From the NCBI GenBank assembly GCA_016699795.1, contig CP065011.1, positions 12,838 through 76,837 of the forward strand: a DNA stretch of 64,000 bases, in the 5' to 3' direction. Positions 31,181 to 52,666 of the stretch are shown here, piece after piece; position 1 is the stretch's first letter; each line of letters begins with the position of its first letter. The stretch comes from Candidatus Moraniibacteriota bacterium (lineage in GTDB: Bacteria; Patescibacteriota; Minisyncoccia; Moranbacterales; GCA-2747515). The position numbers and the translations under genes were made by a program. The notes below the pieces were generated by a model that was given only the letters and a program-made list of their open reading frames with translations, did not search any database and was not told the DNA's origin.

Positions 31181-32488
31181 TTAACTCCTTTCATTTATTA
31201 TACTTGAGTTTCTTTCTTCTTGCAAAAATTCTTTATTAGTTTCTTCTAAACATTCAGAAGGAAGTTCTTGAGCTTTTTTTAGCCTCTTTTCAATAGTACG
31301 ACTTTTCGAAGATGCTCGTTCAATAGCATTGCTCGCTTCTTGAAGCTTCTTATGTGTTTTATCCAAAATATCACCAAAAACAGAGAATTCTTTCTTTACT
31401 GTAGCTAGGAGCTCCCATACTTGACTAGATTGTTTCTCAATCGCCAAGGTACGAAATCCCATTTGTAAACTATTAAGAAAAGCTGCAATTGTTGCTGGAC
31501 CAGCAACAACGATACGATATTCTCGACGAAGCACATCAGCTAAGCCCCCTCGACGAAGAACCTCGGCATATAATCCTTCATTAGGAAGAAAAAGTATACC
31601 AAAGTCAGTAGTAGTTGGAGGATCAAGATATTTATCTCGAATATCCTTGGCCTCACTTTTTATACGTATTTCTAATTGTTTTGCATAATAATCAATCTTT
31701 TCTAAATCACCCTTTTCCGAAGCATCCACCAATAATTGATAATCCTCCAAAGGAAATTTAGCGTCTATAGGAAGAAGAACATACTTTCCATCTTCACGTT
31801 TTGCTGGAATTTTTATAGCAAATTCAACTCGATCATTCGATCCTAGTTTTGTAGCGACATTTATATCGTATTGTTCAATAGTAAGAATATCCGCAAGAAG
31901 ATTTCCCAATTGTGCTTCTCCCCATGTTCCTCGAGTTTTTACATTTTGAAGAACTTTCTTAAGATCCCCCACACCCAGAGCAAGTGTTCTCATTTCTCCA
32001 AGTCCTTTATAAACAGATTCTAATTGAACTTGAACTTTTACAAATGAAGCGTCTAGACGTTTCTCTAAAGTATTATGAAGTTTTTCATCCACTGTCTGTC
32101 GCATTTTCTCAAGTTTTTCAGCGTTATCTTTTTGAAGAATAAGAAGTCTTTCTTCTACAACCTTACGGATATCTTCCATTCTGTTTTCATTTTTTTCGAT
32201 AAGCTCAGCAAGTTGTTTGCGAAAACGTTCAAGGCCTTCTCCTTGAGATTGGGAAATGCCTTTTAAAATATCTCTCAATTCTTCACGAGAATCCTGATTT
32301 CCTCGAGACATTTCTTGACGACCTTGATACGATTCTTGTCTAAGAAGTAAAAGAATACTTTTTTCCATTCGATCCATTCGATCCAAAAAGAAATTTTCTT
32401 TCTCATTTTTTTCGGAACTTTTTTTAAATAGAAAGAAAAGAATGGCTACGCCAATAAATACATTTCCAAAAAGAAGATATTTTTCCAT
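31181..32488 (-). CDS. rmuC: DNA recombination protein RmuC
   Basis: N-terminal TM, long coiled coil, C-terminal RmuC nuclease-like region with LPIDAKFPLEDYQ motif. Confidence 0.75.
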   Translation of the reverse strand: MEKYLLFGNVFIGVAILFFLFKKSSEKNEKENFFLDRMDRMEKSILLLLRQESYQGRQEMSRGNQDSREELRDILKGISQSQGEGLERFRKQLAELIEKNENRMEDIRKVVEERLLILQKDNAEKLEKMRQTVDEKLHNTLEKRLDASFVKVQVQLESVYKGLGEMRTLALGVGDLKKVLQNVKTRGTWGEAQLGNLLADILTIEQYDINVATKLGSNDRVEFAIKIPAKREDGKYVLLPIDAKFPLEDYQLLVDASEKGDLEKIDYYAKQLEIRIKSEAKDIRDKYLDPPTTTDFGILFLPNEGLYAEVLRRGGLADVLRREYRIVVAGPATIAAFLNSLQMGFRTLAIEKQSSQVWELLATVKKEFSVFGDILDKTHKKLQEASNAIERASSKSRTIEKRLKKAQELPSECLEETNKEFLQEERNSSIINERS

Positions 32489-32730: not shown

Positions 32731-34641
32731 TTAGTCCTTTTTCTCTTCTGTTTGGGCATCTTTCACCTCATCTTCTCCTTCAGATTTTTTTTCTTCCTCT
32801 TGAACATCTGATGCGGGGGCTTCTTTTTCTTGAGCCACTTTGTAGAGTTTTTCTCCTATGGTTTGGGCTGTAACAGAAAGTTCTTGTGTAGCTTTCTTCA
32901 CAGCTTCAACATCAGATTTCTCATCTCCAAGAATTTTTTTCAATTCTTCAATTTTTTCTTCTACGGGCTTCTTTTCTTCAGCTGAAACCTTATCTCCTGC
33001 ATCTCTCATAGCTTTCTCCGTTACGAAAATAAGTGTATCAGCAGAATTTCGCACTTCTACTAATTCTTTCTTTTTCTTATCTTCCTCAGCATGTAATTCT
33101 GCATCTTTTTTCATTCGTTCAATTTCTTCTTTTGTGAGCCCACTAGAAGCTTCAATTTTTATAGATTGCGTTTTTCCTGTTGCTTTATCTTTAGCAGTAA
33201 CGCTCAATATTCCATTAGCATCGATATCAAACGTAACTTCGATCTGAGGAATTCCTCGAGGAGAAGGAGGAATACCATCAAGGATAAATCTTCCTAATGA
33301 TTTATTATCTGAGGCGACTGGACGCTCTCCTTGTACAACATGAATTTCTACACTCGGTTGATTATCAGATGCTGTGGAAAATGTCTGTGATTGTTGTGCG
33401 GGAATAGTTGTGTTTTTTTCAATCAAAGGAGTGGCTACACCTCCCATAGTTTCAATTCCAAGAGTAAGAGGTGTTACGTCCAAAAGAAGAACGTCTTTCA
33501 CATCTCCAGCTAGAACACCTCCTTGTATAGCAGCTCCTATTGCTACAACTTCATCAGGATTTACACTTGAATTAGGTTTTTTCCCAAAAAATTCTTCTAC
33601 CTTTTGTTGGACAAGAGGCATTCGAGTCATTCCTCCCACCATAACAATTTCTTCGATATCTTTCACGCCAAGACCAGCATCTTGAAGAGCTTGTTTCATT
33701 GGTTCGAGTGTTTTATCAACCAAATCATGCACAAGTTCTTCTAATTTTGCTCGCTTAAGAGTCATTACGAGATGTTTAGGACCATTCGCATCAGAAGTTA
33801 TAAAAGGTTGATTAATTTCAGTTTCAATCGCGGTAGAAAGTTCAATTTTTGCTTTTTCTGCAGCTTCTTTAATTCTCTGAAGAGCAAGCGGATCTTTTCC
33901 GAGATCGATACCTTCTTGTTTTTTAAATTCATTCAAAATCCAATCAATAATACGTTGATCGAAATCATCTCCTCCAAGATGCGTATCTCCATGAGTTGAT
34001 TTTACCTCGATAGTATCATCTCCTACATCAAGAATAGAAATATCAAACGTTCCACCACCCAGATCATATACAGCGATTTGTTCATTTTTTCTCTTATCAA
34101 ATCCGTATGCAAGTGCGGCAGCTGTAGGTTCATTTACTACTCGTTTCACATTAAGTCCTGCAATTTCTCCAGCTTCTTTTGTTGCTTTTCTTTGAGCATC
34201 ATCAAAATATGCAGGAACAGTAATTACTGCGTCAGTAATAGTTTCTCCAAGTTTTGCCTCAGCATCACTTTTGAGCTTTTGCAAAATCATAGCACTGATT
34301 TCTTGAGGAGTATAATCTTTCCCACTCATAGAAACCTTCACTCCACCATTATCAGACCCTACTACCTTATAAGGAAGATTTTTAATATCTTTTTGAATTT
34401 CTTCATTTGAGAAATCCCCACCAATAAGACGTTTCACACTAAATAACGTATTCCCGGGATTCGTAACTGCTTGACGCTTTGCAAGAAGTCCTACAAGTCG
34501 CTCCCCCGTTTTTGATATTGCTACCATAGATGGGGTAGTTCTATTTCCTTCCTTATTCTCGACGATTTCAGGCTTTCCCCCCTCAATAACCGCCATAGCG
34601 GAATTAGTGGTTCCCAAATCGATTCCTAAAATTTTTGCCAT
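32731..34641 (-). CDS. dnaK: Chaperone DnaK (Hsp70)
   Basis: [18 protein letters not shown]..., DLGGGTFD, full-length 636 aa with acidic C-terminus. Confidence 0.97.
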
Positions 34642-34785: not shown

Positions 34786-35199
34786 TCAGTCTTCCCTTGT
34801 CTCAATAGCTACTCTCCTCGGCTTTACTTCTTCCGCTTTGGGCATAGTAATAGTGAGAACTCCTTTCTCATAAGAGGCTTTTACTTTCTCGTTCTTTACC
34901 TTCATGGGAAGAACGACTGAACGAGAGAAACTTCCTTCACGAATTTCTTTTCGATAATAATCTTCGTGTTTAATTTCTTTTTTCTCTCGAGTTTCTCCAG
35001 AAACCGTCAGTACATCATTTTCCACTGAAACTTCAATATTTTTTGGCTCAATATCAGGAAGAGATACTTTGGCGATAACATTATCACCATCCTGATAAAC
35101 ATCCATAGCTGGAGAAAAACTTCCGGAAAACCATCTATCTTCATCAAAAATTCGATCAAGATCCATGATGGGTTGCCAATGCATTATTTGTCTTCTCAT
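34786..35199 (-). CDS. Small heat-shock protein (Hsp20/alpha-crystallin family)
   Basis: alpha-crystallin domain PAMDVYQDGDNVIAKVSLPDIEPKNIEVSVENDVLTVSGE...GVLTITMPK. Confidence 0.85.
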   Translation of the reverse strand: MRRQIMHWQPIMDLDRIFDEDRWFSGSFSPAMDVYQDGDNVIAKVSLPDIEPKNIEVSVENDVLTVSGETREKKEIKHEDYYRKEIREGSFSRSVVLPMKVKNEKVKASYEKGVLTITMPKAEEVKPRRVAIETRED

Positions 35200-35280: not shown

Positions 35281-36171
35281 TTACAAAACAGCTACTCGAG
35301 CCGGACGAATTATTTTTCCTTTAAAGCGATATCCTTTCTGAATAATTTTAGAAATTTTTATAATAGAGGATTCTTGCTTTTCTTCTTCACTTTCTTTTTC
35401 TGATTCAAGATTTCCCCTATTTTCAATCGCTTCATGAATCTCTGGATCAAACACATCTCCCTCTTTCACTTCAATCTCTTCTACATCTATTTCACGAAGT
35501 ACTCCTTCGAGTTGTTTGTGAATATAGGTTATTCCTGTAACCCAAGGATCATTCTCATGATCTTTGGGAACATGCACAATTGAAGATGAAAAATTATCGA
35601 TCACGGGAAGAAAATTTAAAACCACATCCTCTACCGCACGAACAGAAATTTCTCTTCCGTATACCTCTTGTCGCTTTTTAAAATTTTCAAAATCCGCCAA
35701 GCAACGCCTCCATCCAAGTAATGATTCCTTACTTTCCTTATATTCTTTATAAGAAAGAATTGCATCTTTACTATCTTTTTCAAGCTCCATATCTAAAGCT
35801 TTTGAAAGATCAAACCATTTGTATTCATTATTATGAGTTTCATTTTCAATCTCATCTACCTCATCTTTGAGAGAAAAAAGAGAAATACAAGAAAGATATT
35901 TTTCACCCTCTACGGTAGTAAAAGAAAAAGACAATTTATCTTCAACACTCACTCGCATATTCATTTCTTCGTAAATTTTTTGAACGAAAAATTCTTCAAA
36001 AGATTCTTCGATGCTTACGCTTCCTTTAGGTATACCAAAAGGAACATTCCCTTCCTTTTCTTTAACAAAAAGAATATTTCCAAATTCATTCACAATAATA
36101 CCCTGAATAAAACATTGAGACATCATCCCTTTTCCTTCTTTAATTTTTTCTTCTTTCTTATCCATATACAT
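35281..36171 (-). CDS. grpE: GrpE nucleotide-exchange factor with N-terminal degenerate Nudix-like domain
   Basis: C-terminal ~150 aa: LADFENFKKRQEVYGRE..., LPVIDNF, DPEIHEAI (GrpE core). N-terminal ~140 aa: IQGIIVNEFGNILFVKEK...GIPKGSVSIEESFEEFFVQKIYEEMNM fits GX5EX7REUXEEXGU with RE->QK and G->M. Confidence 0.7.
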   Translation of the reverse strand: MYMDKKEEKIKEGKGMMSQCFIQGIIVNEFGNILFVKEKEGNVPFGIPKGSVSIEESFEEFFVQKIYEEMNMRVSVEDKLSFSFTTVEGEKYLSCISLFSLKDEVDEIENETHNNEYKWFDLSKALDMELEKDSKDAILSYKEYKESKESLLGWRRCLADFENFKKRQEVYGREISVRAVEDVVLNFLPVIDNFSSSIVHVPKDHENDPWVTGITYIHKQLEGVLREIDVEEIEVKEGDVFDPEIHEAIENRGNLESEKESEEEKQESSIIKISKIIQKGYRFKGKIIRPARVAVL

Positions 36172-36222: not shown

Positions 36223-36966
36223 TCAAAAGAAAAAAACGAAAACTATTCCAAAGGATGGGAGGGTGTTAAGAATTTTTTTCATATATTCTACAAGAGATTT
36301 ATTTCTCTCATATCTCATTCTTTTTGGTCCTATAACAGCAACAATTCCTGGCTCACCGCTCTGACTTTCATACGATGAAACTACCATGGAATATCCCGAT
36401 ATCCCATGAATAGGATTTTCATCTCCTATATAAATTTTTGTCTTATCCTTTCCTAAATCCTTAATGAGAATATCAACTTTTTCATCTATATAATCTAATG
36501 CCTCCGCCAATCGACACAATTCATCTCGATTCTGATCAGACTCTATCAATAAACTTCTTAAACCTGATTCATAGAACTCTTCTCTATCCAATCTCCCTAC
36601 CATTCCAATATTTCCCGAAAGAGCAGAAAGAAGTTTTGCTGTTGTTCTTGCCATTCGAACATTTTTTGCTCGTAACTGAAGAATTTCTTTTTGCATATGA
36701 ATTTGTTCTTCTCGCGTAGGCTCATGTTCTTCCATAAGGGTCTCCACAAAGAAACGATAGCCTTTATCCGTAGGAACCCTTCCTGAACTCACATGAGGTT
36801 GAAAGAGAAAGCCTTCTTCTTCAAGAATACTCATATCATTTCGAACAGTTGCCGGGCTAACGTCCGGTGCATATCTTTCAACAAGACAACGAGAACCAAC
36901 AGGGAGTCCGCTTTGAGTATATTCTTCTATTACAGCCGAAAGTATTTTTTGTTGACGAGGGTTCAT
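36223..36966 (-). CDS. hrcA: Heat-inducible transcription repressor HrcA
   Basis: [32 protein letters not shown]... winged-helix N-term; start at internal ATG 36966 (ORF track 36987); CIRCE operator upstream. Confidence 0.85.
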
Positions 36967-37024
36967 AGAACAAAATTCCCAACACAAAATAAAAATGAAT
37001 TACATTCTTATTATAGTAACCGTT

Positions 37025-37051
37025 TTAGCACTCGTCAAGTCCGAGTGCTAA
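37025..37051. promoter_or_regulatory. CIRCE operator (HrcA binding site), perfect consensus
   Basis: ttagcactc-gtcaagtcc-gagtgctaa = TTAGCACTC-N9-GAGTGCTAA, ~60 nt upstream of hrcA start. Confidence 0.9.
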
Positions 37052-37114: not shown

Positions 37115-37528
37115 TTACCTTCTTTTTCTCGCTACACGAAGCCTGGCAAGTTCTTTTTCAAGTTGAGCAGCTACTGTTGCGTATTCTATTTCATTGAGAT
37201 CTTTTCTTTCTTTAGCCTCTTTAGCACGTGCTACAGCTTTTTCTACTCTCTCGATATCTATTTCTTCTGCACGTTCAGCAGTATCAGCAAGTACTGTAAG
37301 TATATTTTTTCCAAATTCCAAAAAGCCACTCGACAAAGCAAGTTCTTCTTTTTTTGAATCTTTAGCAAGAACAAGTCGAATTTCTCCTGATCGCAAAACT
37401 CCAACATAAGGAATATGATCAGCTAAAATGGTAATCTCCCCATCCACAACAGGAAGTGTTACCTGTACAACATCACAATCCATTACTTTTCGCTCTGGTG
37501 TGGCAAGAATAAAATGAAATGATTTCAT
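37115..37528 (-). CDS. atpC: F-type ATP synthase subunit epsilon
   Basis: MKSFHFILATPERKVMDCDVVQVTLPVVDGEITILADHIPYVGVL; last gene of atp operon. Confidence 0.9.
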   Translation of the reverse strand: MKSFHFILATPERKVMDCDVVQVTLPVVDGEITILADHIPYVGVLRSGEIRLVLAKDSKKEELALSSGFLEFGKNILTVLADTAERAEEIDIERVEKAVARAKEAKERKDLNEIEYATVAAQLEKELARLRVARKRR

Positions 37529-37593
37529 AGATTCACAAATTTTTAGAAGTTATAGAAAGGCTAACTATCTATTACTTACTCAAAGCACATACA

Positions 37594-38988
<1,395 letters not shown>

Positions 38989-39031
38989 CTACGTTATAAA
39001 ATAGTATGCGTAATAACATTATAAATATTTT

Positions 39032-39979
39032 TTATTCCAGAGCCGCCCGTCCAGCACTTATTTCTGCAATTTCTTGCGTTATCTTTGCCTGTCTAATTCG
39101 GTTATATACCAACATAAATTCATCAGCAATCTCTCCAGCAGCATCGGTTGCATTCTTCATGGCAACCATTCGCGAAGCTTCCTTTGATGCATTTGACTCT
39201 AAAACCATATGATATATCTGCGTTCGAATAAGTGCGGGCAGTAATGCATCCAAAACAACTTCCGGGGATGGTTCAATTTTATATTCATACGAAGGGCCAG
39301 TAAGTCCAATTTCTTTTTGTAAGATATCCATTTCAGCAAGTTGTTTCTCAAATTCTGAAACGCTTACTGGTAAAATTTGACGCGTCTTCGTTTCTTGTTT
39401 CAGGGCAGAAATATAATCCGTATAGACAACAACAATCTTGTCATATCGTCTTTCTAAATACCAATCAATAAGAGTATTAGCAACTGTTCGCGCTTCATCA
39501 AAACTTGGCGTATGCATCAAATCAGGAAAAGAAGCAATAAGATTTTTTCCTAATGTTGTCGCCATTTTTTCTGCTTTTCGACCAATAGCCACAACATCTA
39601 CGATGCGATCTTTTTTTGATAATTCCTTTTTAACTTCTCCAGAAAAAGCAAATAATCGATCTTCTTGAGAAAGGAGAGAGCGAAATTTTTTCTGTACTTG
39701 TGTGTTAAAACCTCCACAAAGACCTCTATTAGAAGCAATAACTACAATTAAAACATTTGAAATTTCTCGCGCATCAAGAAGTGGGTGTTTTCTATTCTTC
39801 ATTGCTCGTGACATATTTGCCAAAATACTCCAAGCATTATGAGCATAAGGACGAATATCCAGAACATTCTTCACAGCACGTTGCATTTTCGCAGCTGAAA
39901 CCATCTGCATAGCACGCGTCACCTTCTGCGTGTTCCTAATGGAAGTCACTCTTGATCGTATTTCACGCGCTGATCCCAT
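39032..39979 (-). CDS. atpG: F-type ATP synthase subunit gamma
   Basis: MGSAREIRSRVTSIRNTQKVTRAMQMVSAAKMQRA N-terminus, C-terminal helix ...QEIAEISAGRAALE. Confidence 0.9.
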   Translation of the reverse strand: MGSAREIRSRVTSIRNTQKVTRAMQMVSAAKMQRAVKNVLDIRPYAHNAWSILANMSRAMKNRKHPLLDAREISNVLIVVIASNRGLCGGFNTQVQKKFRSLLSQEDRLFAFSGEVKKELSKKDRIVDVVAIGRKAEKMATTLGKNLIASFPDLMHTPSFDEARTVANTLIDWYLERRYDKIVVVYTDYISALKQETKTRQILPVSVSEFEKQLAEMDILQKEIGLTGPSYEYKIEPSPEVVLDALLPALIRTQIYHMVLESNASKEASRMVAMKNATDAAGEIADEFMLVYNRIRQAKITQEIAEISAGRAALE

Positions 39980-40098
39980 AAGAAATTATTTAATCGTATA
40001 AAAACACTATTTTTTAGATTCCAAAAATATGTAAGACACCCCCTTTTCTATCAAATATTTTTCTTCTTTATGATAGATAAAGTTTTATACATATTTTT

Positions 40099-41607
40099 CT
40101 ACTGTTCCAGATATACTTCTTTAAATTCTTTTATCGCCTTTTTAAGAAGTTCCTCAATTTCTTCCGTTATCACCTTTTCCTTCGTAATCTTCTCAACAAT
40201 ATTTTTTTTCTGAGAATCAAAATAAGTCAAAAGCTCCTGTTCCCATACGCGAACCTTTTCAACAGGAACTTCATCAATATATCCCCGAGTAACGGCGTAC
40301 AATGAAATAACTTGCTGAGAAACTGTTAAGGGAGAATACTGATCTTGTTTTAAAATTTCTACAGTCCTTCTTCCTCTCTCAAGTTGACTTCGCGTTTTTT
40401 CATCAAGATCAGAACCAAATTGTGCAAAAGCTTCAAGCTCTCTAAATTGAGCAAGGTCGAGACGAAGTTGACCAGCCACTTGCTTCATAGCTTTAATCTG
40501 AGCCGATGATCCTACGCGAGAAACTGAAAGTCCCACATTTACTGCGGGCCGAATGCCTTTATAAAATAAATTACTTTCCAAATAAATTTGTCCGTCAGTA
40601 ATAGAAATAACATTCGTTGGAATATAAGCACTTACATCTCCAGCTTGAGTTTCAATAATAGGTAATGCTGTTATAGATCCCCCTCCATATTCTTTATTAA
40701 GTCGAGCACTTCTTTCTAGAAGTCGTGAATGCAAATAAAAAACATCTCCTGGATAAGCTTCTCGTCCTGGTGGGCGACGAAGAATAAGAGAAATCTGACG
40801 ATATGCCCAAGCATGTCTTGAGAGATCATCATAGACAACTAGAACATCTTTCCCTTGAGCCATGAAATATTCTCCGATAGCGCATCCTGCGTACGGGGAA
40901 AGAAAGGATAAACTCGCAGCCTCTGATGCTCCAGCACTTACGACTACGGTATATTCCATAGCTCCACGACTTTCTAATTCTGCAACAATTCTTGCAACTT
41001 TAGATTCTTTCTGTCCTACAGCCACATAAACACAAATCATATTCTGCCCCTTCTGATTAATGATAGCGTCAATAGCTACAGCAGTTTTTCCTGTTTGTCG
41101 ATCACCAATGATAAGCTCTCTTTGACCTCGTCCGATAGGAATCATAGCGTCAATAGCTTTGATACCAGTTTGAACTGGTTGATTCACTGCTTCACGAGTC
41201 ACCACTCCTGGAGCAACTTTTTCAATAGGCATCCGTTCTTTTGCGGGAATTTCTCCCTTTCCATCTTTCGGAGCTCCAAGTGGATCAACGACACGACCAA
41301 TAATCTTTTCACTCACAGGAATAGATAAAATTTTTCCCGTAGCACGAACCATATCTCCTTCAGCAACATCTCCGGATGATCCTAAAATCATCACACCAAC
41401 CTGACTTTCTTCCAAGTTAAGAACTACACCAAAAAGACCAGATTGAAATTCTACCATTTCCATAATGGCAACTCTGGAGAGACCGGAAATGCGAGCGACG
41501 CCATCTCCTGATTCTAAAACAATTCCAACAGGATCCTCTTTTGCTTTGGGATCAAATGCTTGAATCTGTTTCTGAATATAATCAATAATAGGATCTGTAT
41601 GTTGCAT
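40099..41607 (-). CDS. atpA: F-type ATP synthase subunit alpha
   Basis: GDRQTGKT Walker A, 502 aa, full alpha architecture. Confidence 0.97.
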
Positions 41608-52162: not shown

Positions 52163-52666
52163 TTATTCAAGCGAGGGAAGATCAGAAACTTCTTTTAGTT
52201 CCTGTGAAAGAATTTTATCCCCTTTTCCAAAATAAAATTTTCCTTGAAATTTTTTGTTTTCGAGAAATAATGGAAACCAATATTCATCATCTGCCCACAT
52301 ATCTTTATAAGGTATATTTTCAAAATTAAACCATTTTGGTTTCATCTCATCCGTTTCCTCAGGAAATCCCACAAAACTATCCACACAAAATATATGCACT
52401 ACCATAATTTCATCAGGACGAGATTCAAAAATGAATTCATGCACGCCTCTGTATTCCATATTTTCAACACCTACGCCACATTCTTCAAACATTTCACGAC
52501 GAGCCGCCTCAGGAATTGTTTCTCCCGCCTCAACTTTTCCACCAAATCCATTCCACCGTCCCATACCAAAACCCCTCTTTTTCATACCAAGAAGAATTTT
52601 TCCTTCTTTAGTAGCAAGACAAAGAGTAAAAAGTCTTTTCTTCATAGATTCTGCGATTATTTCCAA
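52163..52666 (-). CDS. Nudix hydrolase (MutT-like)
   Basis: Canonical Nudix box GGKVEAGETIPEAARREMFEECGV (GX5EX7REUXEEXGU). Confidence 0.85.
   Translation of the reverse strand: MEIIAESMKKRLFTLCLATKEGKILLGMKKRGFGMGRWNGFGGKVEAGETIPEAARREMFEECGVGVENMEYRGVHEFIFESRPDEIMVVHIFCVDSFVGFPEETDEMKPKWFNFENIPYKDMWADDEYWFPLFLENKKFQGKFYFGKGDKILSQELKEVSDLPSLE

Follow-up and report, generated by a model that had tools for sequence, protein, structure and literature searches.

A GrpE nucleotide exchange factor fused to a degenerate N-terminal Nudix domain in a Candidatus Moraniibacteriota heat-shock operon

A stretch of 64,000 nucleotides from Candidatus Moraniibacteriota bacterium (assembly GCA_016699795.1, contig CP065011.1, positions 12,838 to 76,837; GC content 34%), referred to here as the window, was analysed around one gene of its minus strand, located at 35281..36171. 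This gene encodes a GrpE-type nucleotide exchange factor that carries a Nudix-fold domain at its N-terminus, and it lies in a heat-shock operon together with hrcA, hsp20 and dnaK. The same two-domain architecture was found in a family of proteins from the candidate phyla radiation (CPR), most of which have an intact Nudix box, whereas the box of the window protein is degenerate. The explanation that we favour, and consider probable although far from certain, is that of a working GrpE with an inherited Nudix domain, which in this lineage would be catalytically dead or crippled and kept as a structural or ligand-binding module.

The gene is an uninterrupted open reading frame (ORF) of 296 amino acids (aa) plus a stop codon, in which both the GrpE and the NUDIX families of Pfam were detected. 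A protein 100% identical to it is present in NCBI from a metagenome-assembled genome of Candidatus Moraniibacteriota (P0001, "nucleotide exchange factor GrpE"), with its start placed two codons later (294 aa). The motifs on which an earlier note on this DNA had relied were all found in the translation: LADFENFKKRQ (158-168), LPVIDNF (188-194) and DPEIHEAI (242-249) on the GrpE side, and GIIVNEFGNILFVKEK (24-39), the box GSVSIEESFEEFFVQKIYEEMNM (50-72) and EYKWFDL (116-122) on the Nudix side. The central proposal of that note, a GrpE core and an N-terminal Nudix-fold domain in one protein, was borne out by Pfam, a family profile, a structural model and Foldseek, all in agreement. After a charged tail of ~18 aa, the Nudix-fold domain occupies aa 19-131 (35779..36117, minus strand; model, Foldseek and family profile), with the box helix at 58-70 and the last strand at 115-120, and is followed by a complete GrpE at aa 132-296 (35284..35778, minus strand; model and PDB matches), which comprises stalk helix, helical bundle and C-terminal beta domain. 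The GC content at third codon positions is equal in the two halves of the gene (0.214 and 0.218); a recent foreign insertion was ruled out on this basis, and the Nudix domain is therefore taken as native.

The Nudix assignment was marginal when the window protein was searched with Pfam NUDIX (PF00293), which gave 21.9 bits (E=1.9e-4, aa 25-135) at a cut-off of 21.1 bits, while its fused relatives scored 52-136 bits. The matches obtained in the PDB with the single sequence were also weak, the best of them being the Aquifex diadenosine tetraphosphate (Ap4A) hydrolase 3i7u (E=1.3e-3). When the N-terminal domains were aligned for 16 homologues (alignment A3) and searched as a profile, 170 solved Nudix proteins were matched, with a best E value of 1.7e-21. 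Single-sequence AlphaFold gave an unusable model of the window protein, with a predicted local distance difference test (pLDDT) of 34, and an alignment-based model using 21 homologues (mean pLDDT 81.5) was employed in its stead. In this model the N-terminal domain has strands at 19-27, 33-38, 49-53, 74-87, 90-101 and 115-120 and the box-containing helix at 58-70, with a pLDDT of 80-90 across most of the domain. The highest template modelling (TM) score in Foldseek was that of 3gwy, a putative CTP pyrophosphohydrolase of B. fragilis (0.85, root-mean-square deviation 2.3 Å), and 3i7u was matched with E=3e-8; further Nudix matches with E<1e-6 were 4ijx, 2rrk and MutT1. Profiles and model together indicate that aa ~19-131 are a genuine Nudix fold. 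The structure prediction and profile search recommended in the earlier note as a check on this region thus found the Nudix fold, and an ordinary helical extension was decisively ruled out by the family profile (1.7e-21), the model and Foldseek.

In its predicted structure the domain resembles the small single-domain Nudix hydrolases (3GWY, 3I7U and the MutT/NudI type), with which it has the alpha/beta/alpha fold in common (TM up to 0.85) and whose box helix lies in the matching place. It differs from them in that its C-terminal Nudix helix runs on into the GrpE stalk, and in its box, which is broken by R64Q, E65K and G71N, whereas orthologous fused domains carry a perfect GX5EX7REUXEEXGU. The assignment of a substrate from NCBIfam or PDB profiles failed, the matches being spread across many Nudix subfamilies (MutT, NudI, NAD diphosphatase, Ap4A hydrolase and RppH), none of which reached a curated cut-off. 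The Ap4A hydrolase 3i7u ranked second by Foldseek and eighth with the family profile, behind MutT, ADPRase and CTPase entries.

The rest of the protein scored as GrpE far above the threshold of Pfam (PF01025; 107.3 bits, cut-off 25.8 bits), from aa 140 to 295 and over profile positions 23-163 of 165. Solved GrpEs were matched from aa 129 onward, namely 4ANI from Geobacillus kaustophilus (5e-12), 3A6M from Thermus thermophilus (2.7e-10) and 1DKG from E. coli (8.4e-6), and the core aligns with these canonical proteins from the stalk to the C-terminal beta domain. In the model this part consists of an unbroken helix (132-199), a second helix (209-227) and strands between 230 and 295, with a pLDDT of ~90, and its Foldseek match was the GrpE model 9a81. 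The likeness to canonical GrpE thus comprises the predicted long helix, the helical bundle and the beta domain, as well as the location of the gene beside dnaK under HrcA and its operator, the controlling inverted repeat of chaperone expression (CIRCE). All of the defining features of GrpE that could be checked hold, except the strict equivalog cut-offs of NCBIfam, every one of which was missed (best 79.7 bits vs 137); this is a matter of the divergence of CPR-type GrpEs and not of a defining biochemical feature.

The earlier note had also stated that the long paired-helix region of GrpE was replaced by the new domain, and this part of it had to be abandoned. The stalk helix is continuous in the model from 132 to 199, and in the alignment with 1DKG residue 152 of the window protein pairs with residue 60 of E. 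coli GrpE; the first residue of the helix, 132, is thus equivalent to approximately residue 40 of the E. coli protein, which is where the long helix of 1DKG begins. The unfused GrpEs P0015, P0017, P0019 and P0020, which are 165-182 aa long and in alignment A2 share 47-50% identity with the window protein, have a charged tail of just 25-45 aa before the GWRRCLADFENYKK motif, with the pattern GW(R/K)RC(L/Q)ADFENYKK, and two of them (P0017 and P0020, whose contexts were both looked up) occupy the same slot in an hrcA-grpE-hsp20-dnaK arrangement. Because of the continuous helix, the 1DKG alignment and the short tails of these unfused sisters, the Nudix domain is an addition to a full GrpE by which only the disordered N-terminal tail was displaced. 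Unlike canonical GrpE, which has a disordered tail of ~35 aa at this end, the window protein carries a folded Nudix domain of ~113 aa. The disordered tail of E. coli GrpE binds the substrate-binding site of DnaK (PMC12915176).

An in-frame ATG (Met128, 35788-35790) lies just past the Nudix domain, and its use would give a product of ~169 aa resembling the unfused sister GrpEs. No obvious ribosome-binding site was seen for Met128 on reading the sequence, and this residue is not conserved in the relatives; a dual-product gene is not supported.

Fusions of the same kind, with a Nudix domain followed by GrpE in one ORF, were found in large numbers. A word-indexed search returned ~25 proteins, 279-314 aa in length, in which PF00293 and PF01025 occur together. 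When 1.84 billion cluster representatives (50%-identity clusters) were searched exhaustively with a profile, the fusions ranked at the top, and ~75 of the 150 best representatives carried a Nudix domain. Both domains were present in 114 of the 328 proteins fetched, 107 of them at full length, so that the search for GrpEs with similar N-terminal domains in related lineages, which the earlier note had suggested, ended with at least 107 proteins of the same architecture. The named members belong to Candidatus Moranbacteria or Magasanikbacteria, and the closest are 43-50% identical overall to the window protein. They are labelled plain "GrpE" in the source databases, occasionally "GrpE/NADH pyrophosphatase NudC" or "8-oxo-dGTP diphosphatase". 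Wherever the contig of a fused relative was inspected (four of four), the gene occupied the slot between hrcA and hsp20/dnaK.

The junction between the two domains is also conserved. The invariant Trp of the Nudix domain and the Asp of the GrpE motif DFEN lie 41-46 aa apart in 95 of the 107 proteins of full length (41-42 aa in 65), although their Nudix sequences are only ~20-50% identical; in the window protein the distance is 41 aa. This constancy fits the rigid helical junction of the model. The window protein is thus a member of the family by its domain order, its Trp-to-DFEN spacing and its operon slot. In one Magasanikbacteria member (P0137) the junction measures 62 aa, and the GrpE profile is matched more fully, from profile position 7 on.

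Three proteins of ~449 aa (P0062, P0063 and P0071) carry two tandem Nudix domains ahead of GrpE, and none of these six domains has lost the RE or the EE of its box. The context of P0062, the only tandem protein for which it was inspected, showed the same hrcA-X-hsp20-dnaK arrangement, and one tandem member from JGI bears the name "GrpE / NADH pyrophosphatase NudC". When the GTDB genomes were scanned, mostly unfused GrpEs were recovered, and the Nudix part was covered in three loci only (L007, L013 and L014). The fused genes of L007 and L014 are in records titled "Candidatus Fimivivens sp." and "uncultured Bdellovibrionales", labels that look at odds with a CPR-type sequence and may result from mis-binning or mis-naming.

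Neighbour-joining trees were compatible with one fusion followed by several losses or with several independent fusions, and cannot decide between the two. Fused and unfused proteins interleave in the GrpE tree (44 and 41 pure clades), which is weakly resolved with its 137 columns, and fused and free-standing domains interleave in the Nudix tree (23 and 17 pure clades). The distances of the two domains correlate weakly (Spearman 0.31), over 137-150 columns in which the distances are saturated.

The comparison with the family revealed the window domain as an outlier. When 98 GrpE-fused Nudix domains were aligned with the family hidden Markov model, the Arg of REUxEE was present in 90 of them, the Glu of RE in 88 and each Glu of EE in 91, while the last Gly of the box was Gly in 78 and Asn in 16. 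The box of the window protein (aa 50-72; 35956..36024, minus strand) reads G-x5-E-x7-Q-K-I-x-E-E-x-N-M, that is, six of the nine specified positions of GX5EX7REUXEEXGU are matched; E56, E68 and E69 are kept, while R64Q, E65K and G71N are the losses. A degenerate box had already been described in the earlier note, whose change of RE to QK was upheld by the translation and the alignment; the change of Gly to Met was not, since the Gly is in fact replaced by Asn, which is then followed by Met. In MutT, Arg52/Glu53 and the glutamates of the box act as metal ligands and base, and metal binding and catalysis depend critically on the RE pair. With QK in place of RE, hydrolysis should be abolished or greatly reduced. 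The window domain fails the defining box of competent Nudix hydrolases and should not be filed as one. It matched no NCBIfam Nudix model at E<=0.01; several such models were matched by 15 of the 16 domains that were scanned. The majority of the family, ~90% of its members, keeps REUxEE. Degeneration of the box is a derived state, a loss specific to this lineage, and not the design of the fusion.

The losses extend beyond the box. Only 7 of the 17 family-conserved positions (those at least 60% conserved in the fusion family) are kept by the window domain, the median of the family being 88%, and this is the second lowest value among 107 proteins. Furthermore, the Nudix part of the window protein is 26-32% identical to those of its nearest relatives, at an identity of 55-66% between the GrpE parts, whereas the same relatives, compared across their own subgroups, have Nudix identities of 42-52% at GrpE identities of 46-64%. 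The window Nudix domain has evolved much faster than its orthologues. P0074 and P0064 have a GrpE identity of 79% and a Nudix identity of only 19%, the box of P0074 being still intact; P0074 may represent a second case of fast divergence of the N-terminal domain, or else a domain replacement.

In the favoured explanation, the complete GrpE part would most likely open the nucleotide-binding domain of DnaK and release ADP, as its homology and gene context suggest. The Nudix domain, joined to the N-terminal end of the stalk by a helix that is unbroken in the model, would have been inherited from the widespread CPR family of Nudix-GrpE proteins. The ancestral domain was probably a hydrolase because the box is intact in most members of the family, and in that state it would have acted, from its place at the tip of the GrpE dimer, as an NDP-X (nucleoside diphosphate linked to a moiety X) pyrophosphohydrolase. 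The family enzyme, presumably active, would thus be both co-regulated with the DnaK system and physically tied to it. In the dimer the two Nudix domains would be expected to sit side by side at the parallel stalk end, which in E. coli is near the substrate-binding domain of DnaK, where the disordered tails of GrpE act (PMC12915176). In the window lineage the domain has lost the Arg and the first Glu of REUxEE and most of the other family-conserved positions. It is probably dead or strongly impaired because of these losses and of its fast divergence, and would be kept as a folded cap or as a ligand-binding pseudo-enzyme module on an otherwise normal GrpE.

Several points weigh against this explanation. 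E56, E68, E69 and the first Gly of the box (G50) are still present, in some Nudix enzymes catalysis relies on residues that lie outside the box, and a residual or altered hydrolysis by the window domain is possible, judging from these residues. The intact frame, the native codon usage and the confident model argue for a retained function of some kind, and the model itself owes its confidence to aligned relatives whose domains are intact. No relative above ~50% identity was found; a metagenome scan with the window protein returned nothing above 52-53% identity, and that over the GrpE part only. The fusion protein was the sole GrpE match in the 64-kb window, a count that holds for the window and not for the whole genome.

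The retained box residues lead to the alternative of a still-active Nudix hydrolase with a non-canonical box, which, tethered to the DnaK machine, would break down a nucleotide that is aberrant or related to stress, as its orthologues would. In addition to the retained Gly and glutamates, this alternative is favoured by the presence of Asn at the last Gly in 16 of the 98 aligned family members, which are otherwise intact, by a Pfam NUDIX score that is still slightly over the threshold, and by the Ap4A hydrolase 3i7u being the best single-sequence match in the PDB. Nevertheless, both residues of the critical RE pair are replaced, the Glu by a Lys, and the domain stands far apart from the family in how well it is conserved and how fast it has changed; an active enzyme is accordingly considered unlikely.

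A further alternative is that the domain works as a non-hydrolysing nucleotide sensor, binding Ap4A, ADP-ribose or another NDP-X, so that the rigid helix would alter the stability of the stalk or the engagement of DnaK and tune the exchange to the nucleotide or stress state. The Nudix fold is kept while the catalytic box is crippled, as this would require, and the continuous helix of the junction, with its conserved spacing, could pass on a conformational change. Inactive Nudix folds that bind ligands do exist. The C-terminal domain of MutY recognises 8-oxoguanine in DNA and has lost the box entirely. Like the window domain it is a Nudix fold without a working box, and it was among the Foldseek matches (8dwe); it differs from the window domain, which keeps half of the box. 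In addition, the GrpE stalk is a known regulatory element, a thermosensor (PMC12987570), and Ap4A has been reported to bind DnaK (PMC7705103). However, the sensor is not favoured because the conserved positions outside the box have decayed as well: with 7 of 17 kept, the pattern resembles a general relaxation rather than a retained pocket. Nor is the family designed to sense without hydrolysing, because ~90% of its members keep an intact catalytic box. The sensor therefore appears improbable.

Similarly improbable is that the domain is a functionless remnant in neutral decay and heading for loss; a plain GrpE is already found in closely related lineages. The strong acceleration of the window domain, the unfused GrpEs of 165-182 aa in the same operon slot of related contigs and the interleaving of fused and unfused GrpEs in the neighbour-joining tree speak for it, the last of these in a tree that is weakly resolved (137 columns). 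Against it, ~130 codons have been maintained without a stop or frameshift, the hydrophobic core and the secondary-structure pattern are preserved, and the spacing from Trp to DFEN still has the family value of 41; a clean deletion of the domain is evidently easy, and the domain was kept nonetheless.

That there is no real fusion, and that chance Nudix motifs in an ordinary helical extension or a join by assembly or frameshift error gave rise to one, can practically be dismissed: the marginal single-sequence Pfam score (21.9 vs 21.1) is all that speaks for it, whereas the profile, model and fold searches were unambiguous and independent assemblies and sources contain the same two-domain ORF, in more than 100 clusters.

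The genomic context was also as proposed in the earlier note, that is, an hrcA-grpE-hsp20-dnaK operon under a perfect CIRCE, with Pfam matches for HrcA, HSP20 and HSP70. All the genes are on the minus strand: the repressor gene hrcA at 36223..36966 (ATG at 36966, alternative TTG at 36987; Pfam HrcA 66 bits), the fusion gene, hsp20, for a small heat-shock protein, at 34786..35199 (Pfam HSP20 78 bits), and dnaK, for the Hsp70 partner of GrpE, at 32731..34641 (Pfam HSP70 858 bits). The CIRCE operator, which is the binding site of HrcA, lies at 37025..37051 as TTAGCACTC-N9-GAGTGCTAA, with 0 mismatches to the consensus and 0.01 occurrences expected by chance. A putative sigma-70-like promoter, TTGACG-17-TATAAT, was located at 37010..37038 on the minus strand; it matches 11 of the 12 consensus positions, the best in a 5-kb scan, and is a consensus match only. 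Its -35 hexamer TTGACG falls within the inverted repeat of CIRCE, with TATAAT 17 nt on. A -35 element within CIRCE is the classic arrangement for repression by HrcA. The layout is compact enough that bound HrcA could occlude the predicted promoter, and hrcA, the grpE fusion, hsp20 and dnaK would be co-transcribed from this HrcA/CIRCE-repressed promoter.

GrpE is among the best studied co-chaperones, and its N-terminal end, with the stalk and the tails, is the site of thermosensing and of the control of substrate release. The rigid fusion at this end, conserved in CPR clusters that number more than 100 and have diverged from one another, suggests that the metabolism of nucleotides or alarmones is linked to the Hsp70 cycle in bacteria with minimal genomes, in a way not recognised before. 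The family also constitutes a natural experiment, with intact-box, tandem-Nudix and degenerate members and sister lineages without the domain. The window gene alone is of more modest significance, as a divergent and probably inactive member of the family.

Ap4A is an attractive candidate substrate of the family enzyme, since it accumulates under stress. Binding of Ap4A to DnaK, GroEL and ClpB has also been reported, in a review according to which it may simply act as an ATP analogue (PMC7705103). In a more speculative scenario, the family Nudix domain, coupled in its mechanism to the cycle of Hsp70 and placed rigidly next to DnaK at the GrpE dimer tip, would destroy a stress nucleotide that binds or poisons DnaK, and the copy of the window lineage would have turned into a non-hydrolysing nucleotide-binding switch. 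The nucleotide destroyed while the cleft is being opened by GrpE could be Ap4A or a related dinucleotide, or else a species that is damaged or ADP-linked, and the switch of the window lineage would modulate the stability of the GrpE stalk and its exchange activity. Such a scenario is a long shot; if it is true, an Hsp70 exchange factor gated by a nucleotide or linked to an alarmone would be known for the first time.

No description of a Nudix-GrpE protein was found in the full-text literature searched, and the words "Nudix" and "fusion" are both absent from a 2025 review of GrpE-like exchange factors; the architecture, visible in precomputed Pfam annotations, appears to be undescribed. A GrpE with an accessory module at its N-terminus was found in one earlier case only, All4144 of Anabaena, which is described as having an N-terminal helix-turn-helix and intact exchange activity (bioRxiv 10.1101/2025.04.14.648684). 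As described there, All4144 differs in that its accessory module binds DNA and is not of a nucleotide-hydrolase fold, and it comes from an unrelated lineage.

Outside the operon, the genes for the alpha, gamma, beta and epsilon subunits of the F1 ATP synthase (37115-41607, minus strand) stop ~60 nt upstream of CIRCE, and a gene of the RmuC family (31181-32488, minus strand) comes after dnaK. A free-standing Nudix protein of 167 aa is encoded at 52163-52666 on the minus strand, with an intact box GGKVEAGETIPEAARREMFEECGV and a Pfam NUDIX score of 63 bits; its GRWNGFGGK and C-terminal DDxYWFP motifs resemble those of the MTH1/NUDT1 type. As its box suggests, the genome keeps at least one apparently active Nudix enzyme beside the degenerate one fused to GrpE.

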